From a bacterium (GTDB lineage Bacteria > SAR324 > NAC60-12), in assembly GCA_965233585.1 (NCBI GenBank), contig CBDDTI010000747.1, positions 672,001-736,000 on the forward strand: a stretch of DNA of 64,000 nucleotides, written 5' to 3'. A program made the translations under genes and the position numbers. The notes below the pieces were generated by a model. It saw only the letters and a program-made list of their open reading frames with translations. It was not told where the DNA came from and ran no database searches. Positions within the stretch are counted from its first letter, which is position 1; every line of letters starts with the position of its first letter. Positions 737 to 47,731 of this stretch are shown one piece after another.

Positions 737-1504
737 ATGGGGAAACCAAACATGTCAGATAAAAGTTGGCAAAAAATATTTTTGGACTATCAAATTCTAC
801 AGCATGATTTTAGTCAGTCGCCATTTATCCTAACTTCCGAAATGATAAAAACGTCCTGTCAAAATTTCACCAAAACGGGGGAGAAAGAAGTACGTATTTT
901 GTGCAAGCAAGATCATAGAGAAAAAGTACCGACCATTATGGCTGAAAATGGTTTGTTTTTATTACCGGTCAAAAATGGCAAGTATGTGATTGTTAAAGGC
1001 GAAGGATATTTTGATATTCCAGAAATTACCACTAAGGCAAAATTCTATCAATCTAAAATATCCTTTGAATTGGAAACCTCACAAGTTGGCAATTCTGAAA
1101 TGCAACATTTGGATTTTGCCTATGCCACAAGCATCATTAGAACCTTTTTTAACGATGATAGTTTGGTTCTTACCATACGAGGCAGAAAATACACGCCAGA
1201 GTTTTCTTTCTATGTTGGCAATCAAAAAATCACCACAAAAAGCGTTCAAACAGAAGTTGACGCAGGCTATGAGGGTAAAGACAAAATTATCTTGGTAGAG
1301 GCAAAAAATTCAAAAACCCAAAACACTGTCATCAGGCAACTGTTTTACCCATTTAGACAGTGGAGTGAATATACTCAAAAACAAATATGCTTAGTATTCT
1401 TTGAAAAAAGGGACTCTGAGTATATGCTGTGGCAATACAAATTCAAAAACAAAGACGATTATAATAGCATTGAGTTAGTTAATAGTTGTAAATACTATCT
1501 ATGA
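737..1504 (+). CDS. putative type II restriction endonuclease (PD-(D/E)XK fold)
   Basis: QTEVDAGYEG...ILVEAKN nuclease-like motif. Overlaps the downstream methyltransferase by 4 nt (ATGA). AT-rich. Confidence 0.65.
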   Translation: MGKPNMSDKSWQKIFLDYQILQHDFSQSPFILTSEMIKTSCQNFTKTGEKEVRILCKQDHREKVPTIMAENGLFLLPVKNGKYVIVKGEGYFDIPEITTKAKFYQSKISFELETSQVGNSEMQHLDFAYATSIIRTFFNDDSLVLTIRGRKYTPEFSFYVGNQKITTKSVQTEVDAGYEGKDKIILVEAKNSKTQNTVIRQLFYPFRQWSEYTQKQICLVFFEKRDSEYMLWQYKFKNKDDYNSIELVNSCKYYL

Positions 1505-2310
1505 AAGATTACTTTTTTTATCAGTCTGAAAAATCAGTTCTGCTGTATGGAGACAGTTTGTTATTATTGGATAAATTAGCATCCAGTAATAGTCGTTTTG
1601 ATTTGATTTTTGCTGATCCGCCTTATTTTCTTTCTAATGGGGGTATGAGTGTACATGCTGGCAAGCGTGTAAAAGTAGATAAAGGAACTTGGGATAAATC
1701 CAATGGCTTTGATGCTGATTATGAATTTACTTATCAGTGGATTAGTAGATGTAGAGAATTATTAATTGACAATGGTACTATTTGGATTAGTGGTACATTG
1801 CACAATATTTACCTAGTAGGTTTTATACTGCAAAAATTGGGTTTTACTATTTTAAATGACATTGAATGGTTTAAGCCAAACGCCCCTCCTCATCTAGCAT
1901 GTCGTTACTTTGCCCATGCTCATGAAACGCTTTTATGGTCAAAAAAATCTAAAAAATCCAAGCATACTTTTCACTATGAGCAAATGAAAAAATGGCAAGG
2001 TGGCAAAGACATTATCAAAAATGAAAACAAGCAAATGCGCAGTGTGTGGGCAATACCACTTACACCAAAAAGTGAGAAAAAATTTGGCAAACATCCTACA
2101 CAAAAACCTGAAGAACTTTTAAGAAGAGTCATTCTATCTTCCAGTAATGCAGGTGATACTATCCTAGATCCTTTTTGTGGCAGTGGTACAACTGGAGTTG
2201 TATCTGTTCAGTATGGTAGGAATTTTATTGGTATAGATCATAACAGCGATTTCTTAGAGATTGCAAAGCAGAGAATAGAAGAAAAAAGCAATATATTGTC
2301 ATTGTTTTAG
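1501..2310 (+). CDS. beta-class adenine DNA methyltransferase, DpnA/M.DpnIIB-like
   Basis: FADPPYFLSNGG...VDKGTWDK, HPTQKPEELL and LDPFCGSGTTG motifs, with the catalytic motif before the SAM-binding motif. Confidence 0.9.
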   Translation: MKDYFFYQSEKSVLLYGDSLLLLDKLASSNSRFDLIFADPPYFLSNGGMSVHAGKRVKVDKGTWDKSNGFDADYEFTYQWISRCRELLIDNGTIWISGTLHNIYLVGFILQKLGFTILNDIEWFKPNAPPHLACRYFAHAHETLLWSKKSKKSKHTFHYEQMKKWQGGKDIIKNENKQMRSVWAIPLTPKSEKKFGKHPTQKPEELLRRVILSSSNAGDTILDPFCGSGTTGVVSVQYGRNFIGIDHNSDFLEIAKQRIEEKSNILSLF

Positions 2311-3219: not shown

Positions 3220-4782
3220 ATGTCAAACAACCCTTTTGAATTTAAAATAGAACATCAACAAGTTTTCCTTCGGTTTCTCAAACCCTGCTCAGTTTCTAAA
3301 ATTCTTGAACCCCTGCAATATGAACTCTTCCAGTATGAGGTTGAGTATCTGCCAGACAGACTTTTGAAGCTGTCCCAAAATCAAAGTCAAACGTGGCAAT
3401 ATCTTTGCGAGTTTGGCAGCCGTCTTTATCAATACGAAGTCCGTCTTTCTCAAGGACACCATGAAGCCTATTTGACAATCGTCCCGCCCTTTCACGATGA
3501 CATTGAACCCCCAACTTTTGAGGAATTGCACCAAGTGTTAAAGCATCATGGGGTCTTGTCAGGCATTTTGGAATCAGAATGCCAAAAGATGCTACAAGAT
3601 GAAATTTTTTATGAACCTTGTCTTGTGGCAAAGTCTTCTCCTGCGGTGCAAGGGAACAATGGCAAACTTCAAATCATTTATCCTGCTGACAAACACTTCC
3701 ATCATTTACAGCAAATCAATTATCGTGAAAAAGGGACGTTGAGAACGGTTGTGCAAGGTGAATGGATTGCACGATTGATTCCCCCCACTACTGGGCAAGA
3801 TGGTTGGCTAGTCAATGGTCAAATTCTTTCTGCCAAAGCAGGCAAACCTTGTAGAGTGTATGCAGGAAAAGGGGTCACTTACAACCAAGACACTCATCAA
3901 TTTCATACAGAATCTGCAGGCTTTTTGCTTTTTGACAACAAACGATTGTCTGTGGAAAACATTTTGCGTGTGCCTTGTGTCAATCCAGAAATTGGCAATC
4001 TTAACTTTGATGGCAAGCTCTACATTGAAGGAGACGTGGAAGATGGCTATGAAGTCCGTGCCACTCAAGGCATTGAAGTCAAAGGAGTCGTTGGAAAGTC
4101 GTTGTTGGAAACCGATGGTTCTCTTTATATTCATGGGGGCGTCTGGGGTGCAACACTCCGTGCCAAGCAAATCATTTTTTTCCGTTTTGCATGTGATGCT
4201 AAAGTGCAACATGCCAGACACATCTACATTCAGCATTATGCCACGCACTGCGATTTGGAGGCTGAGGTGTCAGTCAAGGTGAAGGCACAAGATGGCTTCA
4301 TTTATGGTGGAAAAACAAGGGCAGGGCTTTTGATTTCTCTACCAAATGCAGGGTCTGAAAAGTGGGAAGTGACCAGCATCTTTCAAACAGGACTTTCTGC
4401 AAAAGAGGCTCAAACGTTGGCTTCTACTAAACAACAAGCTAAGCAACTTGAAGAATTTAAACGTCTGCGACACCAGTACATCAAACACCGTCAAAACATC
4501 AATCCCAAGCCCTTTCAAACGCTTTGTAACAACCTTCATGCACAAGCACGACTTCAACATCGTTTCAAGGAAACAGGGCATTCGTTCCAAGATGGAGTCA
4601 TTTTGGTCAATAATCACATCTTTCAAGGCAGTCAAATTCAAATAGGGCAGGCAGGCTATCTTGTCCAAACAGCACTCAAACATGTTGCTTTTATTGCACC
4701 CAAGTCCAAAGTCACCCCAACAGACATAGATGACCTAGACCTTCAAAAATTTCTCATTGCCAAATCACATCATGCAAATTGA
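3220..4782 (+). CDS. DUF342/FapA family protein
   Basis: Family-typical segments GVLSGI, VVQGEWIARLIPPTTGQDG and GNLNFDGKLYIEGDVEDGYEVRA (beta-solenoid). Confidence 0.8.
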   Translation: MSNNPFEFKIEHQQVFLRFLKPCSVSKILEPLQYELFQYEVEYLPDRLLKLSQNQSQTWQYLCEFGSRLYQYEVRLSQGHHEAYLTIVPPFHDDIEPPTFEELHQVLKHHGVLSGILESECQKMLQDEIFYEPCLVAKSSPAVQGNNGKLQIIYPADKHFHHLQQINYREKGTLRTVVQGEWIARLIPPTTGQDGWLVNGQILSAKAGKPCRVYAGKGVTYNQDTHQFHTESAGFLLFDNKRLSVENILRVPCVNPEIGNLNFDGKLYIEGDVEDGYEVRATQGIEVKGVVGKSLLETDGSLYIHGGVWGATLRAKQIIFFRFACDAKVQHARHIYIQHYATHCDLEAEVSVKVKAQDGFIYGGKTRAGLLISLPNAGSEKWEVTSIFQTGLSAKEAQTLASTKQQAKQLEEFKRLRHQYIKHRQNINPKPFQTLCNNLHAQARLQHRFKETGHSFQDGVILVNNHIFQGSQIQIGQAGYLVQTALKHVAFIAPKSKVTPTDIDDLDLQKFLIAKSHHAN

Positions 4783-9838: not shown

Positions 9839-10375
9839 ATGAAAATTTTAACATACATTAAAAATAACGCTGAGAGTTTAATGAACTCTTTTGGATTGTT
9901 TGGCTTCTTCCAAGGTTTTTTGAAAGGAACAAAAAAACTTGTTAGATCATTTTTGACCTTAGCTTTAGGAATGACCCTTATCTTTGTTCTAGCTGGGTGC
10001 GCTAAAGATGATGATGATTCTTCTGGTAGTGATGATGATGATCCTCATTTCAATGATCCTTATTTCAATAATCATTATGATGATGATAGTGATAGCCAAG
10101 TAACAATTTTAACCTTAAAAAATGAAACTAGTCAGCCCTTTGGTAAATTTTATATTTCTCCTAGCAGTTCTGATGATTGGGGAGACGATATGCTTCCAAA
10201 GACTTTGTGGCCAGGAGAGAAGTATAAATTTACTATTTCTGATTGTAATAAGGAATACGATTATAAATCAGTAGATTTTAAAGGTCGGGTGAGCATTATG
10301 AGAAGAGATTACGTGAAATGTGGTGAAGATTTTATTTTAAGAGTCCTTAGATTCAGAGACCGAGATGAATCTTAA
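9839..10375 (+). CDS. hypothetical lipoprotein with Asp-rich linker
   Basis: Lipobox LAGC followed by DDDDSSGSDDDD and a small beta domain (YISPSSSDDWGDDML). Start uncertain. Confidence 0.65.
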   Translation: MKILTYIKNNAESLMNSFGLFGFFQGFLKGTKKLVRSFLTLALGMTLIFVLAGCAKDDDDSSGSDDDDPHFNDPYFNNHYDDDSDSQVTILTLKNETSQPFGKFYISPSSSDDWGDDMLPKTLWPGEKYKFTISDCNKEYDYKSVDFKGRVSIMRRDYVKCGEDFILRVLRFRDRDES

Positions 10376-10516
10376 TCTCCTTAGATCTTTTAGTAATTAG
10401 ACTTCTTTAAGCTCTACAAAAATAAACACTCATTTAGGTAGATGATTTTTTTTGGAGTCACTGATTAGGGTTTTATCTAAACCCCCCAGCTTATCCAAGT
10501 AGTTTCCATCAAAGCA

Positions 10517-10568
10517 ACCTGACTGACACGCCCCCACAAAGAATGAACCACTTTCTGGTCAGTCAGGT
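10517..10568. repeat. 11-bp perfect inverted repeat with a 30-nt loop
   Basis: ACCTGACTGAC (10517-10527) and GTCAGTCAGGT (10558-10568) in intergenic DNA. Confidence 0.6.
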
Positions 10569-10868
10569 CTATCCCAATAGCCCTCTTTCAATTTCTAAAT
10601 CTCTTTTCTTTTTCTACTTTCCCATTTTTTTAAAATGGAGAAGTTCATCAAATGCCTTAATGACTAAAGGTTGATGATTCTATTCTGTTTGAAGACAGAT
10701 ATTAGCTTCATCTGTAAAGCCCTTTGTCCTTTCAAAAATTTTCTTTCTTTATTTTATTGATTGAATGCAGAATCTTCACAACGCAGGTGGTCTCTGAGCA
10801 GTTTTGACGTTCTTTGGCAATTTTTTAAAAAAGAGACTGCTTGAGTTAGGACTAGTTGATTCAGAAAG

Positions 10869-10884
10869 TGGTATGTTCTTTGCA
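10869..10884 (+). promoter_or_regulatory. putative sigma54 (-24/-12) promoter of the 10931-18102 operon
   Basis: TGGTATGTTCTTTGCA has GG-N10-GC spacing and is close to TGGCACG-N4-TTGCW. It lies 46 nt upstream of the ATG. Confidence 0.6.
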
Positions 10885-10930
10885 AAAGGTATCGTGTCAG
10901 TCAGAACGATGTTAAAATAGGATTGAATCT

Positions 10931-12022
10931 ATGAAAAGGCAATTTTTAGTTATTGGTTTACTTGTTTGGTCAACGATTCTCTTTGCTCAGGAGCAAGAAG
11001 AGGTCATTCCTGACTCAGAGACAGAGAACTCTTCAGAAGAAGGTTGGAAGAGCAAGTGGAATGACCCCCGTATGAGACAACTTGAAGAGATTTCAGGAAA
11101 GCTGGAGACTTTAATGAACAAGCAAGTCAATGTGTCTTCTGCCGCAGTTTACGAGGTGCGTTTTTCCCCACAGATTGACAAGAATTTTAGGCAAGCGGCA
11201 TTGAGCAAGATGTATCAAGTCTTTAGCCGTGTTCCAGATTTTTATGCCGCACGTTGTGATGAATGCTTTCAAATCCGTACTAAAGTGTCAGGTAACACTT
11301 TGCGTGTAAGTCGTGGGATTGCAGACCCTGAACATCGGCGTAAAATTGCAAGACGTATGAACACAGAAGGATTTATGAAGATCATCATCTCCCAAGTAGA
11401 TCAACAACTTTCTGTTGCCATTGAAATTTACGGGGCAAAGAATGGACAGCTTCTTTTTAGTGAAGTGGTGGCAGGAACGCCTCCCATTCCTGAACCCAAT
11501 GCCTTTGATTTGTATGTAGGTCAAATGAGGTTTGACGTTGCCTTTGAGTCTGAGTCTGCAGATTTTTCCGAAACACAAACCTATCAGCTACCAACTTTGA
11601 CGTTTGGAAAGTCTTATCAAATTCTGGAACATTGGTATTTTACAGGAGACATTAGCATTTTGGCGGATATAAGTCAGAAAGAAGAAGATGCACCGGAGGT
11701 CACTGGGGGCTTTTCAGGACTTGCCTTTTATGGAAGAAGTATTTACGACTTTATCAATATTGGTGTCAATGACAATGTCAGTTTTGGACTCATTACAGGG
11801 ATTGGGCAATGGCTTTCTCCACAGCTCAAATTCCCTGTTTTGTATGCTGTGGGGTTGCGTATGATGATGGGCAGGACTTTCTTGTTTAACTTTGAATACA
11901 TTTCTACTGAAATTAAAGAGGTTCAAGCCACATACACCGACCCAGAAACAGAAGAAGAAGTGGAAGACATGAAAGCATCTGTCAATTCCGCAACCAGTGT
12001 CTCTTTAGGAATCCGTTTTTAG
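10931..12022 (+). CDS. exported protein with predicted C-terminal outer-membrane beta-barrel
   Basis: Signal peptide (MKRQFLVIGLLVWSTILFAQ), CxxC (RCDEC), amphipathic beta strands and a terminal beta-signal-like SVSLGIRF. Confidence 0.65.
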   Translation: MKRQFLVIGLLVWSTILFAQEQEEVIPDSETENSSEEGWKSKWNDPRMRQLEEISGKLETLMNKQVNVSSAAVYEVRFSPQIDKNFRQAALSKMYQVFSRVPDFYAARCDECFQIRTKVSGNTLRVSRGIADPEHRRKIARRMNTEGFMKIIISQVDQQLSVAIEIYGAKNGQLLFSEVVAGTPPIPEPNAFDLYVGQMRFDVAFESESADFSETQTYQLPTLTFGKSYQILEHWYFTGDISILADISQKEEDAPEVTGGFSGLAFYGRSIYDFINIGVNDNVSFGLITGIGQWLSPQLKFPVLYAVGLRMMMGRTFLFNFEYISTEIKEVQATYTDPETEEEVEDMKASVNSATSVSLGIRF

Positions 12023-12025
12023 GAA

Positions 12026-13636
12026 ATGATCATGAACTTACAAACTCAATTTTCAGTTGCTCTTTTGACTAGCCTTGCACTTGGGGCGTGTTCTTCAAAA
12101 AGTGATATTGAAGTAGAACAGAATCCAAATACTTCTCGTGTGATCTATACGCATACAAGAAAAAATGAAGTGGTTACAGTGACGGAAGAAAAAACCAAAG
12201 ATGAACATTTGATTCGTGTCAATATAGAACGTGATGGTGAGGTTTCAGAGGCAGTGCATCAAATCCAAGAGCATAATTTTGTCTTTGAAGTGCCACTGAG
12301 AGAAGCCCCTGCTGGAGTATTGGCAAGGAAAGTTGCAGACTATGAAGCCTACATTCAAAAAATCTTTTATGAAGAGATTGCCCAGCACATCTCCACTCAA
12401 CGTTTCACAACGACTGTCAGGGTGTCATGGGATGCGGGTCAGCTAGATACGTTGGATTCTAACTATGACGACCTCAAAACGGACACCTCACAAGTAGATG
12501 TCAGACTAGGCAGTGCCATTTCAAAACTTGATGTGTCAGTCTTGATAGATCAAGGGTTGCCCTCTCGCTATGATGAATTTGTCAAACAACTGATTTTGGC
12601 ACAATATTTTTTCCGTCCTACCAGAGGAGATGCTTTTGAAGTCAGACGTGCCGTGTTTCCTGCCCAAGACTTTTTAGGCAATGACTTTCAATCACGGCTT
12701 TTGACTTATGAATCAGAGGTTCGTCAAAGGTTTGACCAAACTTTAAATCAACACATTGACCCAGAAAATTTTGAAGTTTCATCAAGAATTTTTTGGAATC
12801 AACAAAAACTAGAAGACCTCAAGTTCCAATATCAAAAAGACTCTGGACAACGTCAATCTTCGCAAGATGTTCAATTTGTGACGGCTGTTGACAAACTGCA
12901 AGTAGCAGTCTTATTGGATAGGAATTTATCCAAAGAAAATGATGAATTTGTCAAGTCTCTTGTCTCTGCGCAAGCAGATTTTCAGCAGGACAGAGGAGAT
13001 GAGGTCAAGGTGCAACGAATCATCTTTCCTGCCAAAGGTTCTGTTGGTGTGACGCATAGTGAGAAGTTGGAGAAAACCTTGCGAGACCTCTTGACCAGCT
13101 ACATTGCACCTAAAAACTTTTTTGTTAAAGTTCAACTCTTACCCCCGAAAGAAGCAGACCAAGCAGGCAGGGCGCCTATCCATGTTGGAGTGGTTTTGAA
13201 TGACTTGCTTGACCCAAAAATTGATGACTTTGTCAGGCAAATCATTCCTTTTACTTTGAATACTGATGAAGAATACGGAGACGTCATAGAGGTGACTCGC
13301 AAACGATTCCCCGAAAATCCTGAAATCTCTCAACAAACCGCAGTTTCCAGCCCTAGCACCAATGACGTTGCTCAAACCCAAGAGGTTCAAGACATCTTTG
13401 AACAAATCAGGATTTATTATGAACAAATGGATTATGACAATGCTTTGGAATTGACTCAAAGGGCATTGATTATCGCATCTGACCGTGAGCAAAAAGTGAA
13501 ACTGCTCAAGATGAAGGGGTCTTTGCATTACTTGTTGCAAGAGCCTGAAAATGCACGCAGGGCGTGGAATGAAGTGTTACGGATTGAACCCAGCGATGAG
13601 GAAGCTAAACAATCTTTAAACATGATTGACTCATGA
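12026..13636 (+). CDS. lipoprotein with three FliF C-terminal (RBM3)-like repeats and a C-terminal TPR
   Basis: Lipobox LGAC-S. Repeats end in TRGDAFEVRRAVFP, DRGDEVKVQRIIFP and EYGDVIEVTRKRFP, each preceded by a KLxVxVL(I/L)D-like strand. TPR helices at the C-terminus. Confidence 0.7.
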   Translation: MIMNLQTQFSVALLTSLALGACSSKSDIEVEQNPNTSRVIYTHTRKNEVVTVTEEKTKDEHLIRVNIERDGEVSEAVHQIQEHNFVFEVPLREAPAGVLARKVADYEAYIQKIFYEEIAQHISTQRFTTTVRVSWDAGQLDTLDSNYDDLKTDTSQVDVRLGSAISKLDVSVLIDQGLPSRYDEFVKQLILAQYFFRPTRGDAFEVRRAVFPAQDFLGNDFQSRLLTYESEVRQRFDQTLNQHIDPENFEVSSRIFWNQQKLEDLKFQYQKDSGQRQSSQDVQFVTAVDKLQVAVLLDRNLSKENDEFVKSLVSAQADFQQDRGDEVKVQRIIFPAKGSVGVTHSEKLEKTLRDLLTSYIAPKNFFVKVQLLPPKEADQAGRAPIHVGVVLNDLLDPKIDDFVRQIIPFTLNTDEEYGDVIEVTRKRFPENPEISQQTAVSSPSTNDVAQTQEVQDIFEQIRIYYEQMDYDNALELTQRALIIASDREQKVKLLKMKGSLHYLLQEPENARRAWNEVLRIEPSDEEAKQSLNMIDS

Positions 13637-14703
13637 AATATCTGATTTTTATTATTCTTTTACTGACTGCACCAGTCATGCTTTTGGCTCAACAAGAAGT
13701 CAGAGACCAAGCTGATGACATCTTTCAGCAACTGATGGGACAAGATGCTCCATCAAGAGAAGAAGGAGAGGCTGAACCGACTCAAACGGCTGAAGCACCA
13801 CAGGTGGAAGCAGAAGCAGAGCCTGAAAACTCTCAACAACCTGCTAACTCTGAAAATGAAGTCACACAAGAGCAAGACTCTATCACGCCTTTGCAACTGC
13901 AAGAGATGTTGCGAGCATCTATCAAACAAGAAATCAAAATTCCTGATGAGGCTCAACGTCAGTTTAATGACAAACAGCTTAGTCAAAAAGTGAAAGAGTT
14001 CTTAAAACTTTCATTGTCTGAAAGACTCATAGATGTCGTGGTGGACACTCGTTACATTGTGCAGTTAGTTCCCATTGTGAAAAAAAGTAGTCAACTTCAA
14101 AAAATCAAATTGCCCGGTTTTGAAAACTACGTTTGGACTCCTGCATTTAAAAATCATAACTTATCGTTTTCTTATCAAACCAGACCTTACCGTACTTATT
14201 TTATTCTTCTCAATGGTCCAAAGACCCTTGTCAACTACGATTTGGTTCAAAAACGCATTGTTGAAATAGACCCTACTACCGATTGGGAAAATCGGGATTT
14301 GCTGAGAGTGATCAATGTTTCTTACGAGACACCTGAATCTTCCCCTTTGCAGATTGCTCAACAAAAACAGACTCAACAAGAAGAAATTCCCCAAATAGAA
14401 CCCAAAGAGGCAGTGCCAGCACCCCTTTCTTTGGAAGAACAGTTGGAACAGGAGAAGCAGTTTAGTAAACACTTGCTTTCTGCAAGAGATGAGTTTTTTA
14501 AGGACAATTTAGATGCGGCATTGGATAACCTGATTGAAGCCATCAAGTTTAATCCTAAATCTGCTCAAGCCTACGAGATGCTTGGCTCTGTTTACTATCG
14601 TTTGGATTGGAAGGAGAAGGCATTGCATTACTGGGGAAAGTCATTGGAACTTTACCCAGATAATAAGACTTTACAAAGATATTATGACAATTTGAGACAA
14701 TGA
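13633..14703 (+). CDS. exported protein with a divergent FliF-like ring domain and C-terminal TPR
   Basis: Signal peptide, Q/E-rich linker, LSQKVKEFLKLSL...VVVDTRY...KLPGF segment and a clear TPR (AIKFNPKSAQAYEMLGSVYY). Confidence 0.65.
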   Translation: MKYLIFIILLLTAPVMLLAQQEVRDQADDIFQQLMGQDAPSREEGEAEPTQTAEAPQVEAEAEPENSQQPANSENEVTQEQDSITPLQLQEMLRASIKQEIKIPDEAQRQFNDKQLSQKVKEFLKLSLSERLIDVVVDTRYIVQLVPIVKKSSQLQKIKLPGFENYVWTPAFKNHNLSFSYQTRPYRTYFILLNGPKTLVNYDLVQKRIVEIDPTTDWENRDLLRVINVSYETPESSPLQIAQQKQTQQEEIPQIEPKEAVPAPLSLEEQLEQEKQFSKHLLSARDEFFKDNLDAALDNLIEAIKFNPKSAQAYEMLGSVYYRLDWKEKALHYWGKSLELYPDNKTLQRYYDNLRQ

Positions 14704-16499
14704 AATGGTCAGCTATGAAACTGTGGCAACTTCTGCTTGCATTTTTGTTGGCATCGTCTGTTTTTGCACAAGAACGAGTGCCTTCTTTGCAACAGTATGA
14801 ATTAGGGCTTGAAAGTAAGATTCGCAGAAATTTAGAACACTACTTACAACCTAAAGACTATGTGTTGCGTGTGTCAGCACTAGGCAGTCCTTATGTTGCC
14901 CAAGAGATTTCTCCAACAACTCAAGTTGCTCAACCTGTTGAAAGTTTGCCCGGATTTTCTGCAGACCCTCCAGAAACACCAGTTGTTCAACAGATTCCTA
15001 AATCAAACACTCCAACACTTTGGGAGGTCTCCAGAGTTCAAATAGACCTTATCATGCACAAAGAGATTTCCTCTTCTTTGCAAGAATATCTGTTAAGGTC
15101 TGTTCCTTTGATTGCTGGATTGATTCCAGAGCGAGGCGATGCTTTTAATTTCCTACCAATCACCCCCAATGAAGTCATTAAACTTGAACCAGAAGAAGAA
15201 GCACCTGTTGAACCCTTAGAAAATTTGGAAGAAGAGCCACTTGTTGAACCTTTGACATGGTATGAACAACTTCATCAACAATATGGCATTTGGACTTGGG
15301 TTGCTTTGGGTGTAGTCGTATTCTTGTTTTTATTGCTTCTCATTTTATTGTTCAGACGTCCTAAAAAAATGGTTGAACAACCTGTGCAACAAGCAACACC
15401 TGATTTGAAACAACAGTTTGAACAAGAAAAACAAGAGGTTGAAAAGGAACGCACCAAAAAGATGCAAGACTTCTTTGCCCAAGAAGAACAAACCAAACTT
15501 GTTCAAGAGATTGTCAAAGAATTGATAGGACATGAAGATTGGAAAACAGAGCTTGTCCATGAATGGAGTAAAGGACGTAAAGACAAACTTCCTTTGCTGA
15601 TTTGTGCTTTGGGAACATTCACCTCAAGAAGTCTCTTTGCTAAGGTTCTGGGGTCATCTGTGTATGGAAAACTGGAACGAACCGCCAACGATTTGTCTCC
15701 TCAAGATTCAGAAATCGCTGACATTCTCAAAGAATCCTATGACTTCATCAAAGCCAAAAGTATTGACACCCCTCAAAAATATCAAAATGACCCGTTCCGT
15801 TTTTTAGATGAGTTAAGTCCTTCACAAGTCAGTTTTTTGGTGAAAGATGAACCCATCAGAATCAAAGCGATTGTGTTAAGCCGTCTGAACAGTGAGGGTG
15901 TCTCGCAGATTCTCAAAAAAATGCCTCCAGATGAACAATCGCAAGTTTTGATTACGATAGGCAATTTACATGAATTGCCCCTTGACCTGATTGAAGGGGT
16001 GGCAATGGAGTTAACCTCTAAATTGCCTGACTTGCCTGACGAAAACACAGCCTCTTTTGATGGGGTGGACATGTTGGCAGACCTCATCACTTTTGCTGAC
16101 AATCAAACAAGAAGGGACATTTTGAAACAGCTTAAACTCAATGACCAAAAGCTAAGTCTGAAAGTAGAAGAGCGAAGTTTTGTTTTTGAATCTATCCCTT
16201 TGATTCCCAAAGAAGTTTTAACAGAAGCGGTAAGACGCATGAACTCTGATGATGTTTTGACAGCATTTGTTGGGGCAGATCGTGAAATCCAGAAAGCAGT
16301 CATCTTGTGTTTTAATGAGACAGTGCGTGGCAATATGGTCTCTCAACTCAAAGCCAAGTCTCCAACTGCTGGTGAGATTGATGATAAGAAACGATTGTTT
16401 GTGGCACAAATCAGACAACTAGCAGACGAAGGAAAGATTGCCCTCAAAGACCTTTATCTGAACTGGCAAAAACGAAGCAGAAAAGCAAGAGTCGCCTGA
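14700..16499 (+). CDS. fusion: FliF-like periplasmic ring domain, TM helix, FliG middle and C-terminal domains
   Basis: YELGLESKIRRNL...GLIPERGDAFNF (FliF-like), then TM WVALGVVVFLFLLLLILLFRR, then DPFRFLDELSPSQVSFLVKDEPIRIKAIVLSRL (FliG-M) and SFVFESI...IRQLADEGKI (FliG-C). Confidence 0.8.
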   Translation: MKWSAMKLWQLLLAFLLASSVFAQERVPSLQQYELGLESKIRRNLEHYLQPKDYVLRVSALGSPYVAQEISPTTQVAQPVESLPGFSADPPETPVVQQIPKSNTPTLWEVSRVQIDLIMHKEISSSLQEYLLRSVPLIAGLIPERGDAFNFLPITPNEVIKLEPEEEAPVEPLENLEEEPLVEPLTWYEQLHQQYGIWTWVALGVVVFLFLLLLILLFRRPKKMVEQPVQQATPDLKQQFEQEKQEVEKERTKKMQDFFAQEEQTKLVQEIVKELIGHEDWKTELVHEWSKGRKDKLPLLICALGTFTSRSLFAKVLGSSVYGKLERTANDLSPQDSEIADILKESYDFIKAKSIDTPQKYQNDPFRFLDELSPSQVSFLVKDEPIRIKAIVLSRLNSEGVSQILKKMPPDEQSQVLITIGNLHELPLDLIEGVAMELTSKLPDLPDENTASFDGVDMLADLITFADNQTRRDILKQLKLNDQKLSLKVEERSFVFESIPLIPKEVLTEAVRRMNSDDVLTAFVGADREIQKAVILCFNETVRGNMVSQLKAKSPTAGEIDDKKRLFVAQIRQLADEGKIALKDLYLNWQKRSRKARVA

Positions 16500-17470
16500 T
16501 GCTAGAAAGAATCATCACCTTCTTTGGAATTATCATAGGAATTGGATTAATTGGCTTTGGGATTGTTTGGCCTGATAAATATTCTAATGCCTATCTTTAC
16601 AACATTGCACTGATGGAAGCAGACATCAAAGCGATGCAAGAGGCACGGACTCCTTTTGCACAAGTGCAGGCTAAAAGGAGGGAATTGGAAACCTACCGCG
16701 AATCTATTCCTGCCAATGTGGCTCGCTTTCTTGATTTGAAATCTTTTGTCATTGTGTTTGGTGGGTCTTTTGCCGCCTTGCTCATTGCTTTCCCTGCCAG
16801 AAAATCACTGCGGGCATTTTTGTTCATCTCCTCTGCTTTTTTTGGCAAAGACAAGCAAGGGTCAGAATTTGCAGAATACTACAGCACCTTTGTCAAATTT
16901 TCTGAAAAACTCTCTGCACGGGAACTCATCACCGACGAAGACTTTGCATCAATTGAAGACAAAAGACTTCGGGAATGGTTAGAGTACTTCACTGCATCAG
17001 ATTCTGTGCCTGAGGAGATGATTCAAGAAATTATTCGCTCTGAAATTGCCGCCGTAGAACGTACATCAGAAGAAGAGGCAGAACTCCTTGACTTTATGTC
17101 TAAGGTTGCACCTGCATTTGGCATGATTGGAACGGTCATTGGTTTGATTTTGATGCTCGGCAATGTGAATGCAGATGACATTGATATTTTTAAAATCATT
17201 GGTGCAATGGGAGTCGCTATGATTACAACACTTTATGGGGTGGCAGTAGCAAATCTTATCTTCACTCCGATTGCTACCAAACGAAGAAGCCTGATGTATT
17301 CAGAATTGTATCTGATGGAAATGGCAAGAGAGGGAATCCTTTATCTCAAAAACAAACAAACTCCAGAACTTGTCTCAAGAGACCTTATTATTTATTTGCC
17401 AGATAGGATTAGACAACGAATTGAGCAAGAGAAGTTAGAAAAACTCAAATCAGGTGATTTAGGTCTATGA
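16499..17470 (+). CDS. motA: MotA/PomA-like stator A subunit with a periplasmic insertion
   Basis: FLDLKSFVIVFGGSFAALLIAFP, APAFGMIGTVIGLILML and AMITTLYGVAVANLIFTPIATK motifs. Confidence 0.85.
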   Translation: MLERIITFFGIIIGIGLIGFGIVWPDKYSNAYLYNIALMEADIKAMQEARTPFAQVQAKRRELETYRESIPANVARFLDLKSFVIVFGGSFAALLIAFPARKSLRAFLFISSAFFGKDKQGSEFAEYYSTFVKFSEKLSARELITDEDFASIEDKRLREWLEYFTASDSVPEEMIQEIIRSEIAAVERTSEEEAELLDFMSKVAPAFGMIGTVIGLILMLGNVNADDIDIFKIIGAMGVAMITTLYGVAVANLIFTPIATKRRSLMYSELYLMEMAREGILYLKNKQTPELVSRDLIIYLPDRIRQRIEQEKLEKLKSGDLGL

Positions 17471-18102
17471 GAAAGAATGTAGGAGAATCAACATGGATGG
17501 TCACTTATGCAGACATGGTCACCTTGCTGTTTATCTTCTTCATCTTGTTGACTGCCATCTCTGCACGTCCCAAAAACTGTAAAAATATCAGTGATTACAT
17601 GGCATCTAATCCACAGAATTTTGCCAACTACGAGCTTCGTGCTACCAAATTACAATGTATCATTTCTCTCCCTCAGGATTTTTTGTTTTCTTCAGGCGAG
17701 GCAAAGCTGAAAGAAGGGGCATTGCGTGAGTTATCCCCTTTTTTTCAAATGATCAAAAACCTTCCTGAACACCAAGAAGATTTAGTCGTGGTAGAAGGAC
17801 ACACTGACAATGTACCAATCCGCACCAAAGAGTTCCCAAGCAACTGGGAGTTAAGTTCGGCTCGTTCTCTTTCTGTGGCAAGGTTTCTGGTGGACCGTCT
17901 TGGATATGCCCAAGAGACAGTGTCAGTCAAAGCCTTTGCAGACACCCGCCCCAAAGTCCCCTATCAAGACCCCTACAATCGCCCACTCCAAGGAAATGAG
18001 CTTAAAAATGCAAGAAAAGCGAACAGACGCATTGAAGTCCTCATCATAGACCAACCCCGCTCCAGAGAAGATGCCAGCATCCTCTTTCAAACTGTCCAAT
18101 AA
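17467..18102 (+). CDS. motB: MotB/PomB-like stator B subunit (short), OmpA-like peptidoglycan-binding domain
   Basis: WMVTYADMVTLL with the conserved Asp, VEGHTDNVPI, SNWELSSAR and NRRIEV. Confidence 0.88.
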   Translation: MRKNVGESTWMVTYADMVTLLFIFFILLTAISARPKNCKNISDYMASNPQNFANYELRATKLQCIISLPQDFLFSSGEAKLKEGALRELSPFFQMIKNLPEHQEDLVVVEGHTDNVPIRTKEFPSNWELSSARSLSVARFLVDRLGYAQETVSVKAFADTRPKVPYQDPYNRPLQGNELKNARKANRRIEVLIIDQPRSREDASILFQTVQ

Positions 18103-18148
18103 GCCTACCTTTTAGTGAAGTCAAACAATGACTAGCACCTCAAACGTT

Positions 18149-20050
18149 CTATGGAAGGATTGGTAAGGATTCTGCCAAAGTAGATTTGAAAAAAATGACT
18201 TGCGGTGCAAACAACAGTGTTTGTTCTTGTTGCAAATAGGAGTCACTTTGAAAACTTGCAGAATTGAGAGAGTGCAGTTGTTTTAGATGAAAGAGTGCAT
18301 CATCATTTCGTTGTGTTTGGGCATAGATGAGGCTTAATCGTTGTAAAAAGATGTCATGTTGCAAAGTGGATTGTCGTCTTTGAAGGAAAGAGACAAGCAG
18401 TTGTTCTGCTTCTTGAAGCATTCCCATCTTGACGTAAAGCAGGCTTAAATCGTCAATCAAAGAGACTTGTTCAGGGAACAACTGATACCCTTGCTCGTAA
18501 ATCTTTTGTGCTTCTTTGTCTTGTTTAAGATATTGCAACGCCCGACCTGCTTGTAAATGCAACAAACCTGCTCCTTTTTTTGCGTTGAGAAAGGGCTGCA
18601 AATAAGTCAAAGTGTTGTCATAGCGTCCCATTTGATTGAGAATGCTGGCGTGAAGATAAGCAATGTCTTCACTGGATTGTTTTGACAAATTTTGGGTCAT
18701 AGCAAAGGCTTGCTGATAACGTTTTTGAAAGTAAAGCAGTCTTGCCAAAGTAAATCTGACTTTGGGAGTGTCTTGAAGTTCTTGCAGTTGCAAGGTCAAT
18801 TTTTCTGCAAGTTCATACTGACCACGCAAGATGTAAAGGTCTATTTGCAAATGCAATAATTGTGGGTCAAGTGAAGATTCTGCTTGCATTTCATTGAGTG
18901 CATTTTCCACACGGTTCCAGTTTTGGGTTTGCATGTCTCTTTGAATTTTAAGCATCTGATAACGTTGGTTGCTAAAATCCAACTCCAATGCTCTAGCAAG
19001 CTCATTGTCTCCTTGTAAAGTGTTGCCTTCCTTGAACAAAACCAGTGCCAGTAAATATCTTGCTTCTGCCTGCATTTCATCTATTTCCACAGAACGTCTC
19101 AACCAGATTTTTGCCTCTTCAAATTGGTCTTGATACAGAAAGACTGATGCCAATAACACCATGCTTTTTGCATCAAGTGGAACGTCTTCTAAAAGATTTT
19201 GCAAAGTTTGTTGTGCAAGAAGCCACTTCTTTTGTTTGATGGCAATGCGGGCAAGAATTTGTCTTTCTAAGACACTATAAGGTTCTTGGGTTTGTGCAAG
19301 AATCGCTTTGTCGTTTCCTTGTAAAAAGAGAATTTTCAGTAAATATTCCTTCGCTTTGGCAAGGGTTGGTTCGTCTGCCAATAATTGTTGAACTAAGACT
19401 TTGGCATGGTAATAATTCCCTTGTAGCATCTGAATTTGCACCTCTAAAAGCCGATATTCTGGATTGCTTGGTTCAAAGAGTAGGACATTTTTCAAATGAT
19501 TTTCTGCCACTTCAAAGTCACGTTGTTTGATGTTGAGTCTTGTCAGATAGGCTTGAATTTCTAAGGTAGGTCCTGAACGTTGCAATGCCACTTCCAATGC
19601 GCCAATAGCACGTTCGTTGTCTCCAATCCTCTCATAAGTCATTGCCAGTTTGAGGTAGGCAGAGATGAGGTCACGGTCTAACTTAATGGCTGTGTTCAGG
19701 GAGTCAATAGCACGGCTATACTTCTTATTTTGATACGCAATGCTTCCTAATAGCTCAAAGTAAATTCCAACGATGGGAGAAAGGCTTAACGCTCTTTGAA
19801 TGTTCAGTTCCGCTTGTTCTAAATTTTGTTGTTCAAAATAAGCCAACGCTAGCTGATAGTATGCAACGGCGTCATTCTTGTTATTCTGAATGCGGGTTTG
19901 TTGTTCAGTAATAAACTGTTCTTTCTGTAATGCGTCCATTCTCTCAAACTGTTCAAGCGTCGTTGGAGAGGTGCAAGCAAGGCTTAAGAAGCACAAAAGA
20001 CTAAGGACGTGTGATGGTATAGGTTTGAGAAGGCGAGCTTTCATTGCCAT
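18149..20050 (-). CDS. TPR-repeat lipoprotein
   Basis: Lipobox SLAC and many TPR-like helical repeats (AYYQLALAYF, AYLKLAMTYERIG). Confidence 0.8.
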   Translation of the reverse strand: MAMKARLLKPIPSHVLSLLCFLSLACTSPTTLEQFERMDALQKEQFITEQQTRIQNNKNDAVAYYQLALAYFEQQNLEQAELNIQRALSLSPIVGIYFELLGSIAYQNKKYSRAIDSLNTAIKLDRDLISAYLKLAMTYERIGDNERAIGALEVALQRSGPTLEIQAYLTRLNIKQRDFEVAENHLKNVLLFEPSNPEYRLLEVQIQMLQGNYYHAKVLVQQLLADEPTLAKAKEYLLKILFLQGNDKAILAQTQEPYSVLERQILARIAIKQKKWLLAQQTLQNLLEDVPLDAKSMVLLASVFLYQDQFEEAKIWLRRSVEIDEMQAEARYLLALVLFKEGNTLQGDNELARALELDFSNQRYQMLKIQRDMQTQNWNRVENALNEMQAESSLDPQLLHLQIDLYILRGQYELAEKLTLQLQELQDTPKVRFTLARLLYFQKRYQQAFAMTQNLSKQSSEDIAYLHASILNQMGRYDNTLTYLQPFLNAKKGAGLLHLQAGRALQYLKQDKEAQKIYEQGYQLFPEQVSLIDDLSLLYVKMGMLQEAEQLLVSFLQRRQSTLQHDIFLQRLSLIYAQTQRNDDALFHLKQLHSLNSASFQSDSYLQQEQTLLFAPQVIFFKSTLAESLPILP

Positions 20051-47370: not shown

Positions 47371-47392
47371 ATATTTTAAAAAGGGCAATAGA

Positions 47393-47731
47393 ATGGATAA
47401 AGGGAACACTGAAGAGATGAATGTCGTTAAGGCTACCAGCACACAAATCATTAAGCAACTCACTGAGGCGTTCCAATCTCAAAAGAAGGTGAGGCTGAAG
47501 CATAACGAGTTTCTACTGGTCGGTATGATTGTTGATTATCAAGATTTAGATTTGTGTGATCGCATCAGAAAACAGTTTCAACTTCAGCTATCTTTGCAAG
47601 AAATAAGTATTTTTTTGATTTGTTATGAACAATTTTTAGGCTTTCAGCTGATGAGCAAGCACTCTGACCAAATAGAATTGATGCTTAACTATCAAATCCC
47701 TTATCATGAAGTCAGTCTTGAGTTGCTGTAA
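47393..47731 (+). CDS. hypothetical protein
   Basis: 112-codon ORF filling the gap between co-oriented genes. Confidence 0.5.
   Translation: MDKGNTEEMNVVKATSTQIIKQLTEAFQSQKKVRLKHNEFLLVGMIVDYQDLDLCDRIRKQFQLQLSLQEISIFLICYEQFLGFQLMSKHSDQIELMLNYQIPYHEVSLELL

Follow-up and report, generated by a model that had tools for sequence, protein, structure and literature searches.

A conserved SAR324 gene cluster that may encode a flagellum-derived rotor-stator machine without a filament

Introduction

To our knowledge, the generation of torque by FliG and MotAB is known only from flagella, the core of which comprises the FliF MS ring, built of about 33-34 subunits, FliG, and the MotA5B2 complex. RBM1 and RBM2 of FliF house the export gate; in orthodox FliG the N domain is free and binds the tail at the C terminus of FliF, a separate protein; and an EHPQ motif of FliG serves FliM. 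High-torque motors have accessories (PflA/PflB/FlgY, FlgP, MotX/MotY, FlgO/FlgT) that are TPR-type scaffolds, lipoproteins, and outer-membrane-associated proteins around the stator ring; PflA and PflB are TPR proteins, and sigma54 promoters, TPR proteins, and outer-membrane lipoproteins are all typical of such accessories. In H. pylori, PflA and PflB are reported to form a scaffold of this kind (PMC12054838). Covalent FliF-FliG fusions engineered in Salmonella and Vibrio can build the MS ring/S ring; they are laboratory constructs with full-length FliF in a normal flagellum (PMC11481574; 10.1101/2023.02.06.527414). A natural fusion of a shortened FliF (RBM, TM) to a FliG-like domain has been described in the Chlamydiaceae, in a context without a complete flagellum (Bergeron, bioRxiv 10.1101/023564 / PeerJ 2016). 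It is about 330 aa long, has two TM helices, and retains RBM2, and only the M region of FliG was recognized in it; a partnership with the T3SS was proposed, and it is not known to be accompanied by MotAB, RBM/TPR paralogs, or an outer-membrane barrel (10.1101/023564).

Here we describe a six-gene cluster from a marine bacterium of the SAR324 group, a globally abundant group (PMC9031357, PMC8364033) in all genomes of which flagellar motility genes have been reported (PMC9031357). The window, meaning the whole stretch of DNA that was analyzed, is 64 kb long. No published description of this six-gene system was found in the literature searched.

Results

The cluster occupies positions 10931-18102 on the + strand of the window, and its six open reading frames, g1 to g6, are separated in order by a 3-nt gap and then by overlaps of 4, 4, 1, and 4 nt. 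A pattern search placed a putative sigma54-type -24/-12 promoter element, TGGTAT-N5-TTGCA (TGGTATGTTCTTTGCA, positions 10869-10884, + strand), 47 nt 5' of the g1 start codon. This exact pattern occurred once in the 64 kb, compared to 0.61 matches expected, and at least once in 50 of 100 shuffles, so that the single match, taken alone, is not above chance. Among 29 related loci, the exact pattern was present in only the 5 in which motAB comes first, 81-139 nt upstream of motA, the first cluster gene, and was absent from the other 24. When the scan was relaxed to GG-N10-GC with 8 or more of the 11 consensus positions matched and covered the 400 nt that precede the first cluster gene, 19 of 20 cases had an element (a raw count without a shuffle control), the exception being locus L017. 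Taking the two scans together, the putative promoter element is found repeatedly in front of the cluster irrespective of which gene leads.

As sequence and model together indicate, g4 (14700-16499) is a natural fusion of the C-terminal half of FliF to a complete FliG-like cytoplasmic part. From the N terminus, a signal peptide and an RBM3-like domain precede the single TM helix, which is followed by a coiled coil and then by a cytoplasmic part with FliG-like N, M, and C domains; these assignments come from Pfam, profile searches, an AF2 model (pLDDT 74, pTM 0.30), and Foldseek. The cytoplasmic part (residues about 279-599) passed the Pfam gathering scores for both FliG_M (43.3 bits versus 25) and FliG_C (46.8 versus 23.3), and the family profile matched T. 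maritima FliG (1lkv) in the PDB with an E value of 7e-21. In Foldseek searches, the model matched full-length FliG 8umx_B over 320 columns (E 5e-9), and the three-domain FliG fold was aligned over 309-334 columns to 8umx_B, 8wiw_3, and 3hjl (E 5e-9 to 1e-8); the low target TM-scores of these alignments (0.28-0.36) are attributable to a differing arrangement of the domains. Residues 30-153 form an alpha-beta-beta-alpha-beta domain with an invariant LPGF inside a disordered insertion, and hydropathy and the model place the single TM helix at about 194-225. The model, Foldseek, and profile all find in g4 a FliF-type RBM3 domain followed by a TM helix: the profile matched residues 432-532 of FliF 6scn (E 0.007), and the FliF S-ring/RBM3 structures 8z4g, 8z4d, and 6sd1 were matched with a probability of 1.0 but modestly (E 0.017-0.03, target TM 0.49-0.51), the best being the solved S-ring of the Vibrio fusion (8z4g, with an E value of 0.017 and a TM-score of 0.51, and 8z4d). 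Across the Foldseek matches, this RBM3 similarity was modest, with E values of 0.017-0.1 and TM-scores of about 0.5.

Several features set g4 apart from orthodox flagellar proteins. It fell short of the NCBIfam equivalog cut-offs (TIGR00207, 76.5 versus 226.7 bits; NF004260, 23.9 versus 550), the FliG part and the TM helix belong to one polypeptide, which leaves no free N domain, and the position of the EHPQ motif reads (D/E)EPx in the g4 family, with E384 and P385 invariant. In the torque-helix region, the basic R543 is nearly invariant. Where the acidic pair would be expected, the SAR324 g4 consensus has S/S and some distant g4 relatives have D/E; this tentative mapping was made through an alignment to T. 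maritima FliG and the correspondence of T. maritima and E. coli residues. The torque-helix charges of E. coli FliG, R281 and D288/D289, are reported to pair with MotA, including MotA R90 with the acidic pair (PMC12505986).

One reading of such a fusion is that the cluster supplies the only MS ring/C ring of the genome, as a strongly reduced flagellar motor core, and the laboratory FliF-FliG fusions do form rings (PMC11481574; 10.1101/2023.02.06.527414). Model and hydropathy, however, identified in g4 one RBM and neither RBM1, RBM2, nor a second TM helix; a cleavable-looking signal peptide replaces TM1; and no export-gate gene was linked to the cluster at any locus examined. On these grounds we regard a reduced motor core as highly improbable.

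The two genes upstream of g4 encode further RBM3-like/TPR proteins. g2 (12026-13636) is a predicted lipoprotein (lipobox LALGAC, visible in the translation) with an N-terminal domain, three FliF-RBM3-like repeats (residues about 98-214, 215-337, and 338-432), and a C-terminal TPR domain. Pfam matched both TPR and YscJ_FliF_C (35.2 bits versus a cut-off of 23.8, E 2e-8), the latter also in 16 of 21 g2 orthologs, and the family profile matched residues 238-303 of the FliF chain 12dr in the PDB (E 0.002). When the repeats were compared to each other, repeats 1 and 2 were 38% identical (E 7e-24) and repeats 2 and 3 were 20% identical (E 1e-5). g3 (13633-14703) appears to be an exported paralog of g2, in which a signal peptide is followed by an acidic/Q-rich linker, a single RBM-like domain with KLPGF invariant in the family alignment, and a TPR domain. 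By sequence, the TPR domain was the only part of g3 recognized in searches of Pfam, the PDB, and the ESM Atlas; hhalign related g3 to g2 across both the RBM-like and the TPR parts (probability 97.4%, E 1e-11). Together with the hhalign comparisons of g4 to a g2 repeat (95.5%, E 1.6e-8) and to g3 (65%), these alignments indicate that the periplasmic domains of g2, g3, and g4 are paralogous RBM3-like domains.

A lipoprotein with tandem RBM domains is also found in the inner rings of injectisomes (SctJ/PrgK lipoprotein, SctD/PrgH), the family of which shares Pfam YscJ_FliF_C with g2, and the relationship between FliF and PrgK has been described (10.1101/023564). In the injectisome, this lipoprotein forms stacked periplasmic rings. 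The cluster differs in having no linked secretion apparatus, in RBMs of the FliF RBM3 type with an LPGF-bearing insertion, and in TPR tails.

The coordinates, the junctions, and the element at 10869-10884 agree with an earlier, sequence-only reading of this DNA, which had noted six tightly coupled genes behind a sigma54-type promoter. The parts that it had listed, with their FliF, FliG, and MotAB homologies, were recovered by sequence and by fold, including a lipoprotein with three FliF-C-like repeats plus TPR, for which the repeat self-comparison, the YscJ_FliF_C and TPR matches, and the lipobox are the evidence. A structural match to FliF/FliG had been set beforehand as a test, and profile searches and Foldseek of the models found such matches.

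g1 (10931-12022) has the attributes of a secreted outer-membrane protein: a signal peptide precedes a periplasmic domain that is TolB-N/LpoB-like, and the C-terminal part is a small amphipathic beta-barrel with an aromatic last residue. The periplasmic domain carries an invariant CxxC (C109, C112) in an alignment of 18 sequences; the C terminus reads ...GIRF, and a terminal F is present in 14 of these 18 orthologs. Neither Pfam nor NCBIfam matched g1, and the ortholog at locus L013 gave a weak match to Pfam OMP_b-brl (E 1.7e-4). The AF2 model (pLDDT 83) comprises the periplasmic domain and a barrel of 8-9 strands over residues 190-362, for which Foldseek returned TolB, LpoB, the OmpA transmembrane domain, Ail, NspA, OmpX, and OmpW (E 4e-5 to 1e-3), and the ESM Atlas gave leads to LpoB/CsgG/TolB_N and OMP_b-brl clusters. 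The outer-membrane pore that the sequence-only reading had envisaged did not hold up, since the modeled barrel resembles those of the OmpA TM domain, Ail, OmpX, and NspA. With this small OmpA/OmpX-type barrel joined to a TolB-N/LpoB-like domain, g1 looks like an anchor rather than a pore.

g5 and g6 encode a stator pair of the flagellar type. g5 (16499-17470) is a MotA with four TM helices (Pfam MotA_ExbB, 81.6 bits, E 5e-23), the best PDB matches of which were flagellar MotA and PomA (E 1e-28 to 3e-19), with the alignment beginning at query residue 72 versus chain residue 28. The best NCBIfam models were MotP, PomA, and MotA, all under their equivalog cut-offs (MotP, 142 bits versus 394). The family alignment shows a conserved extra stretch of ~45 residues with the motif PDxxSNxYxY in the periplasmic loop between TM1 and TM2. 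MotA proteins of this long form are common, with 932 clusters at an E value of 1e-20 or lower, the best 120 of these 932 all being 318-338 aa long; SAR324 bins and a TARA ocean entry are among the sources that are named. g6 (17467-18102) is a MotB whose TM helix bears an Asp (YADMVTLL); a plug follows, and a short linker leads to an OmpA-like peptidoglycan-binding domain (Pfam MotB_plug, E 7e-13; OmpA, E 1e-13). Its best PDB matches were flagellar MotB, PomB, and MotS, and its best NCBIfam match was MotD, at 114.7 bits versus a cut-off of 283. The features of flagellar stators, namely, a MotA_ExbB channel with four TM helices and a MotB with plug, TM Asp, and OmpA-like domain, are thus present in g5 and g6. 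An identity as Tol-Pal or ExbBD-TonB proteins was considered and rejected, the matches of g5 to TolQ (E 2e-4) and ExbB (E 1.7e-3) being weak compared to that to MotP (E 1.7e-41) and the B subunit having a MotB plug plus an OmpA domain.

These matches bear on two further readings of the cluster. In the first, the FliG-like domain would dock onto or gate the MotAB channel of a nonrotary envelope system, for Tol-Pal-like tethering, sensing, maintenance, or signaling across the inner membrane, peptidoglycan, and outer membrane. The TolB-N/LpoB-like domain of g1, the OmpA-like peptidoglycan-binding domain of MotB, the failure to recognize an output device, and TPR modules reminiscent of CpoB/YbgF are all in line with such a system. 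The complete FliG M and C domains, torque-helix region included, are nevertheless kept in 23 close and 30 distant relatives, RBM domains build rings in the solved systems that g4 matches, and MotA is far closer to MotP than to TolQ. We consider a nonrotary system improbable. In the second, the cluster would be a Zorya-like anti-phage system on a MotAB-like motor, a reading that is hardly credible: the weak model matches to ZorA2 (E 1.8e-5) and ZorB1 (E 2.6e-17) that suggest it cover no more than the generic channel region of MotA and the OmpA portion of MotB and fall far behind the flagellar matches, g1 to g4 had no PADLOC match except one marginal one (E 0.0013), no ZorC/D-like, nuclease, or helicase partner gene was found, and in the maximum likelihood (ML) tree the cluster is vertically conserved across a phylum.

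Gene order was compared among the 29 related loci, which were obtained by a search of genome contigs and counted wherever they had enough flank to be judged. g3 preceded g4 in all 24 judgeable loci, g2 was present in 22 of 22, and g1 was present in 19 of 19. Of the 16 loci flanked by 3 kb or more on each side, 6 had motAB adjoining g1 to g4, and in the other 10 it was not adjacent. In the ML tree, the loci without motAB in the fetched flanks, of which the tree contains 9, grouped together as one clade with a support of 100/100, and on the deeper SAR324 branches motAB was linked to the cluster. Beyond SAR324, fusions of the RBM-TM-FliG type had 148 representatives at an E value of 1e-30 or lower, most of them about 580-720 aa long and aligned over almost their full length. 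Among 30 distant g4 relatives that were aligned, FliG_C and FliG_M were each matched in 30 and YscJ_FliF_C in 12. Their named sources are Bacteroidota, Ignavibacteria, and Bacteriovoracaceae bins, and the named hosts of this wider family may all be from flagellated lineages.

The surroundings of the cluster were then searched for flagellar genes. Among the 55 other ORFs of the window (30 scanned by NCBIfam and 35 by Pfam, 10 of the latter as rescans), the scans detected no gene for an export gate, rod, or hook and none of fliM/N or fliE/H/I, and the sole flagellum-named match was a FapA/DUF342 protein at 3220-4782, 6 kb upstream of the cluster. At the three other loci scanned (L013, L028, and L001), no flagellar gene lay within about 10 kb of the cluster, and the synteny comparison found no shared flank outside it. 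The sequence-only reading had asserted that operon and window lack rod, hook, export-gate, and fliE/H/I/M/N genes, and this was confirmed; its notion of a self-contained unit fits the lack of synteny beyond the cluster and the scans of these three loci, and the conserved gene order that it had proposed as a test was found, g1 to g4 being syntenic in every SAR324 locus with enough sequence.

Discussion

Compared to the flagellar core, the cluster retains an RBM3-like domain, the TM helix that comes after it, and the FliG N/M/C folds, a MotB with plug, OmpA domain, and TM Asp, and a four-TM MotA nearest to solved flagellar stators. It differs in that the C-terminal half of FliF and FliG are one polypeptide with a signal peptide in place of TM1, in lacking RBM1/RBM2 and linked export-gate, rod, hook, FliM/N, and FliE/H/I genes, in FliG, MotA, and MotB proteins that all score under the NCBIfam equivalog cut-offs, and in the addition of RBM/TPR paralogs, an outer-membrane barrel, and the periplasmic insertion of MotA. 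Since no export, rod, or hook genes are nearby, the cluster may be a rotary engine whose load is not a filament. Our preferred reading, to which we give a probability of about 0.5, is that the cluster encodes a flagellum-derived, filament-less rotor-stator machine that is tied to the outer membrane and has neither secretion nor axial parts.

In such a machine, g4 would use its RBM domain to assemble into a ring in the inner membrane, offering the FliG_C torque helices to MotA, and ion flow through peptidoglycan-fixed MotAB would turn this ring. g3 and g2 would form rings or scaffolds on a common axis in the periplasm, the assembly would be tethered to the outer membrane by g1 and by the lipid anchor of g2, and the TPR domains and the MotA insertion would make system-specific contacts. 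As for the output, our guess is that an outer-membrane or surface component is moved or remodeled, rather than that secretion occurs through a pore. The more specific proposal of an autonomous trans-envelope rotary engine without filament, rod, or type III secretion core, in which a dedicated MotAB spins an RBM3-TM-FliG ring and torque passes via stacked RBM/TPR rings to an outer-membrane-anchored complex, is put forward tentatively, at somewhat under an even chance. Counting against the preferred reading are the flagellar motility genes reported in all SAR324 genomes (PMC9031357), the possibly flagellated lineages of all named hosts of the wider family, the resemblance of the sigma54-type element, TPR proteins, and lipoprotein to what is typical of flagellar accessories, the unlinked motAB at 10 of 16 loci, the nearby FapA/DUF342 gene, the modest RBM3 fold match, the pTM of 0.30 of the g4 model, and the apparent absence of the acidic torque pair from g4 of the window. 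No output or cargo component was recognized, which also counts against it.

The main rival is that the cluster serves an ordinary flagellar motor as an accessory, with g1 to g3 as stator-recruiting periplasmic/outer-membrane scaffold discs, g4 as a further FliG ring, tethered to the membrane and surrounding the MS ring, and motAB as the flagellar stator. g1 to g3 would then be functional analogues of FlgP/PflA/PflB or MotX/MotY/FlgO/FlgT. A sigma54-type element upstream, a set of TPR proteins, a lipoprotein, and an outer-membrane-anchored protein, a MotAB that groups with flagellar stators and not with the Tol, Exb, or Zor proteins, the unlinked motAB of the marine clade, and the FapA gene all favor it, as do the flagellar genes reported in SAR324 genomes (PMC9031357) and the scaffold that PflA and PflB are reported to make in H. 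pylori (PMC12054838). Pfam and NCBIfam scans, for their part, gave no sequence match from the cluster to the PflA/PflB/FlgY, FlgP, MotX/MotY, or FlgO/FlgT families. No known accessory has FliG or an RBM3-TM-FliG fusion, and RBM3 repeats are likewise not known from any of those families. A FliG with its own TM helix and a ring-building domain resembles a rotor in itself. In addition, the cluster never adjoined flagellar genes in the 64-kb window or at L013, L028, and L001, and the clade-specific MotA insertion is absent from the solved flagellar stators that were aligned. We judge an accessory role to be less probable than the preferred reading, though the most probable of the rivals.

If the reading as a filament-less rotor-stator machine is true, the cluster represents a second use of the flagellar engine, in which the rotor ring and stator were kept, the secretion system, rod, hook, and filament were dropped, and dedicated periplasmic rings and an outer-membrane anchor were added, and whether rotation and type III secretion arose separately becomes a testable question. 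The occurrence in SAR324, with distant forms in Bacteroidota, Ignavibacteria, and Bacteriovoracaceae, could mean that the family branched off from the flagellar motor long ago or that it is related to a rotor-stator module that predated union with the secretion apparatus. Given the ecological importance of SAR324, the system may bear on cell attachment, movement, or envelope handling. Source annotations label genes of the cluster type "flagellar motor switch protein FliG" or "chemotaxis protein MotA," and these labels can inflate genome-based calls of flagellar motility.

Organization of the operon

Genes g1 to g6 lie on the + strand as six ORFs at 10931 to 18102, with a 3-nt gap at the first junction and overlaps of 4, 4, 1, and 4 nt at those that follow, which bears out the six-gene operon described in the sequence-only reading. 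The intergenic region 5' of g1 is 556 nt long, and the G+C content is approximately 40% over the entire window. Elsewhere, the window carries housekeeping genes, among them efp, epmA, argF, tilS, leuS, lon, prfB, pyrE, tatC, and glgP. When 55 other window ORFs were scanned, a flagellar name was found only on a FapA/DUF342 protein, in agreement with the earlier claim that no rod, hook, or export-gate gene is present in the window. This protein is encoded at 3220 to 4782 on the + strand, 6 kb upstream of the operon (FapA_N, E 7e-30; FapA beta-solenoid, E 4e-41), and its gene was syntenic with the cluster in 0 of the 29 related genome loci analyzed. Outside the operon, window ORFs had no conserved partners in these loci save for generic ABC ATPase matches. 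RNA gene searches (Rfam and ARAGORN) yielded three tRNAs for the window as a whole, with no match in the operon or its vicinity, and scans of 10300 to 18300 for sigma70 promoters and terminators gave results no better than those for shuffled sequences. Convergent with motB on the - strand (18149 to 20050) is a gene for a 633-aa multi-TPR protein with weak NCBIfam matches to PrsT, MamA, and GltE-type TPR lipoproteins; in the other loci, it is not retained at this position beside the cluster.

g4 is a fusion of FliF and FliG

The N-terminus of the 599-aa g4 protein resembles a signal peptide, and a single strong transmembrane (TM) segment lies at approximately residues 194 to 225. Both FliG_M and FliG_C exceeded the Pfam cut-offs, and its FliG score was under the NCBIfam equivalog cut-off. 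A g4 profile built from 23 relatives matched Thermotoga maritima FliG (E 7e-21) and, weakly, the periplasmic end and TM2 of FliF (6scn residues 432 to 532, E 0.007). In the AlphaFold model (pLDDT 74, pTM 0.30), residues 30 to 153 form an alpha-beta-beta-alpha-beta domain with an invariant LPGF in a low-confidence insertion (69 to 103), followed in turn by the TM helix, a coiled-coil segment, and approximately 320 residues that are entirely helical. When this model was searched with Foldseek, the helical part matched full-length FliG over 309 to 334 columns (E ~1e-8), and the periplasmic domain matched the FliF S-ring/RBM3 (ring-building motif 3) with a probability of 1.0, E values of 0.017 to 0.1, and a target TM score of about 0.5. 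Taken together, the matches by Pfam, profile, and fold show that g4 naturally joins the C-terminal half of FliF (RBM3 and TM2) to the whole of FliG, as had been proposed from the sequence in the form of a ring-domain-TM-FliG fusion. In one locus, from a marine SAR324 bin (L013), the g4 homolog occupies two ORFs, at 9929 to 10636 (periplasmic/TM) and 10868 to 11857 (FliG), which could be explained by a frameshift, by an error in sequencing, or by a true division of the gene.

g2 and g3 are related to the periplasmic domain of g4

The 536-aa g2 protein carries the lipobox LALGAC and three repeats followed by a C-terminal TPR domain. Repeats 1 and 2 are 38% identical (E 7e-24), repeats 2 and 3 align with an E of 1e-5, and the repeats match Pfam YscJ_FliF_C, as do those of 16 of 21 orthologs; a repeat profile matched FliF residues 238 to 303, the start of RBM3 (E 0.002). 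The sequence-only description of g2 as a lipoprotein with three FliF-C-like repeats and TPRs is thus supported by its lipobox, repeat alignments, and YscJ_FliF_C match. For the 356-aa g3, searches of the ESM Atlas and of PDB profiles recognized only the TPR domain. When g3 was compared to g2 by hhalign, the alignment (probability 97.4%, E 1e-11) spanned both the RBM-like and the TPR parts, and g3 is, judging from this alignment, a paralog of g2. The periplasmic domain of g4 aligned with g2 at a probability of 95.5% (E 1.6e-8) and with g3 at 65% (E 6e-5) and belongs to the same domain family as their RBM-like domains. All three proteins share two signatures: (K)LPGF, located in the insertion, and RGD-x-hydrophobic...FP, where the domain ends. 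In loci of the L028 type, the equivalent of the window's g2 is divided into a 231-aa lipoprotein (N-domain and TPR) and a protein with two RBM-like domains and TPR; either the window's g2 is a fused form or these loci have a split form. The extra 231-aa lipoprotein gene lies between g1 and g2 (L028:7029-7724) and was seen also in loci of the L016, L021, and L024 types.

g1 is predicted to be a small outer-membrane barrel

No family model matched g1 (363 aa). Its structural model (pLDDT 83) consists of an alpha/beta periplasmic domain and an 8- to 9-strand barrel with a terminal Phe. Foldseek matched the first part to TolB and LpoB and the second to the OmpA transmembrane domain, Ail, NspA, OmpX, and OmpW, and leads from the ESM Atlas agreed with these matches. 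An outer-membrane pore had been suggested from the sequence; the small size of the modeled barrel and its resemblance to such proteins indicate that g1 is not a secretion pore, and on this model g1 is predicted to be a small anchor barrel. Another reading of the whole cluster, as a non-rotary envelope tether, is less likely.

g5 and g6 encode flagellar-type stators

Among NCBIfam families, g5 was nearest to flagellar MotP, PomA, and MotA, and it matched solved flagellar stators with E values from 1e-28 to 3e-19. The MotB plug, the Asp in the TM helix, and a domain of the OmpA type are all present in g6. These results uphold the MotA and MotB assignments; both proteins scored under the NCBIfam equivalog cut-offs. 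Between TM1 and TM2, g5 contains approximately 45 additional residues, which are kept in orthologs and include the motif PDxxSNxYxY. This long form of MotA is abundant, with 932 clusters at an E of at most 1e-20, counted regardless of whether g1 to g4 are carried; the best 120 of the 932 are all 318 to 338 aa, and SAR324 bins and a TARA ocean entry are among the named sources.

The torque-helix region of SAR324 g4 is basic and is without the acidic pair of orthodox FliG, and the MotA loop has an invariant Asp (D146) eight residues past a mostly conserved Arg. With the charged residues of E. coli mapped onto g4 and MotA in a way that we partly presume, these charges are only a hint that the interface may be co-adapted. 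The roles of the E. coli torque-interface residues are given in PMC12505986. A Zorya-like defence system was also considered for the cluster and is less likely; a PADLOC scan gave only generic Zor matches, and identity as a defence system was rejected on this basis.

Conservation of the cluster and of its promoter element

A word-indexed search with g4 returned 47 relatives, the named ones being from SAR324 and "Lambdaproteobacteria" bins. When GTDB species genomes were scanned, 300 pattern-matched stretches yielded the 29 loci, titled almost all SAR324, or unclassified delta- or proteobacteria, and gene order was assessed by tblastn and blastp. All 24 loci with upstream sequence had g3 immediately before g4, the remaining 5 beginning within g4 or less than 100 nt from it; g2 was present in 22 of 22 and g1 in 19 of 19 judgeable loci. 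The motAB pair follows g4 in the window and L001, precedes g1 in L016, L021, L024, L026, and L028, and was missing from the fetched flanks in 10 of the 16 loci with at least 3 kb on both sides. Of the six-gene order proposed earlier as a check, g1 to g4 are syntenic in the judgeable loci, and the linkage of motAB is not general. Outside the cluster, no synteny was shared among the 29 loci. L001, whose gene order equals that of the window, is the record "Deltaproteobacteria bacterium TL4", which bears no MAG label; a search for cultured strains of SAR324 or TL4 turned up nothing of use.

A careful maximum-likelihood tree of g4 was built from 31 rows, of which 25 were loci, one was the window, and 5 were distant relatives that served as the outgroup; L005, L006, and L029, which are partial, and L013, which is split, were excluded. 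The nine loci in the tree with no motAB in the flank formed one clade (100/100) and the deeper SAR324 branches had motAB linked, so motAB appears to have become unlinked once, within the marine clade. The window sequence is on a long branch, which makes its exact placement unsure.

Within the region 5' of g1 is a sigma54-type element, TGGTATGTTCTTTGCA, at 10869 to 10884. Its exact pattern had one match in the window versus 0.61 expected, so this single match is not significant on its own. Just five of the related loci, out of 29, carry the same exact pattern; they are the very five in which motAB heads the cluster, and the match lies 81 to 139 nt before motA. A relaxed scan, which asked for GG-N10-GC and agreement at 8 or more of the 11 consensus positions, found an element in 19 of 20 cases, by raw count, in the 400 nt that precede the first gene of the cluster. 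The exception was L017, and the matches in L001 and L023 were weak or oddly positioned. In the marine clade, the relaxed scan found a conserved TGGCAGGAAGGTTGCA approximately 39 to 95 nt before g1. We infer that the element is a conserved sigma54-dependent promoter.

Wider family and relationship to the flagellum

When the g4 profile was run exhaustively with HMMER against 1.84 billion cluster representatives, there were 4638 matches at an E of at most 1e-3, 1717 at 1e-10, and 148 at 1e-30. Beyond approximately 20 close relatives, more than 100 representatives of roughly 580 to 720 aa matched near end-to-end (E 1e-56 to 1e-30). Among 30 distant relatives that were aligned, FliG_C and FliG_M were each detected in 30 and YscJ_FliF_C in 12, and bins of Bacteroidota, Ignavibacteria, and Bacteriovoracaceae are the sources of the named relatives of this group.

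It may be that every named host in this wider family is flagellated, which would favor a serious rival to a filament-less machine, namely, that the cluster acts as an accessory of the flagellum or as a second rotor ring. Elaborate flagellar motors are commonly controlled by sigma54 and commonly contain TPR scaffolds and lipoproteins of the outer membrane, and the cluster has a sigma54-type element, TPRs, and a lipoprotein. Conversely, we know of no flagellar accessory that contains FliG or an RBM3-TM-FliG fusion, and the cluster was never beside flagellar genes in the loci examined. SAR324 genomes are reported to carry flagellar genes (PMC9031357), again in favor of an accessory. That the cluster is instead a reduced, sole flagellar core is less likely.

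Among described systems, the operon comes closest to the flagellar MS-ring/FliG/MotAB core, to the short FliF-FliG fusion of Chlamydiaceae (10.1101/023564), and to FliF-FliG fusions made in the laboratory. In none of the three is a fusion rotor found together with stators of its own, RBM/TPR paralogs, and an anchor in the outer membrane. In the literature searched, with most subscription journals outside its reach, no description of the operon was found. Our preferred reading is that the operon encodes a rotor-stator of the flagellar type whose architecture is new; should it prove independent of flagella, it would represent a new machine class. One preprint notes that rotor proteins lacking filaments may serve another function (10.1101/2024.12.05.626484).

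Building on the domain architecture, paralogy, synteny, and promoter motif demonstrated here, we propose that the RBM domain of g4 would form a ring in the inner membrane, in the manner of FliF RBM3, that its fused FliG would offer the C-terminal domain to MotA, and that MotAB held by peptidoglycan would turn the ring. g3 and g2 would contribute coaxial rings or scaffolds, being either a co-rotating, ring-built "shaft" or a fixed stator scaffold, and the g2 lipid anchor and g1 would link the assembly to the outer membrane. A lead to its output may be offered by L001, where the gene order is as in the window. There, two large + strand ORFs with CarboxypepD_reg, Calx-beta, and LapA-like matches follow motB (L001:11296-13665 and 13823-15904), the first overlapping motB by 11 nt; they were seen in this one locus only and may encode surface cargo or an adhesin.

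Other features of the window

Five tandem, overlapping DUF29 genes lie on the - strand at 57684 to 59877 between sugar-modification genes and encode proteins of 142 to 160 aa each (PF01724, E 1e-37 to 4e-39). At 737 to 2310 (+), a gene for a DUF6996/DUF6997 protein precedes, and overlaps by 4 nt, that of a CcrM-like N6-adenine methyltransferase, and a second N6_N4 methylase gene, followed by a small ORF and then a gene for a VWA-domain protein, lies at 46507 to 48560 (+). The prfB gene (-) has a classical programmed +1 frameshift site, GGGGG TAT CTT TGA C, at approximately 29335 to 29360, and the ORF downstream of it (28300 to 29070) spans only positions 107 to 352 of the RF2 profile. Finally, a 428-aa ORF at 50558 to 51844 (-) combines an N-terminal Response_reg domain (E 1e-29) with LpxC (E 2e-73), an unusual receiver-LpxC fusion at the committed step of lipid A synthesis.
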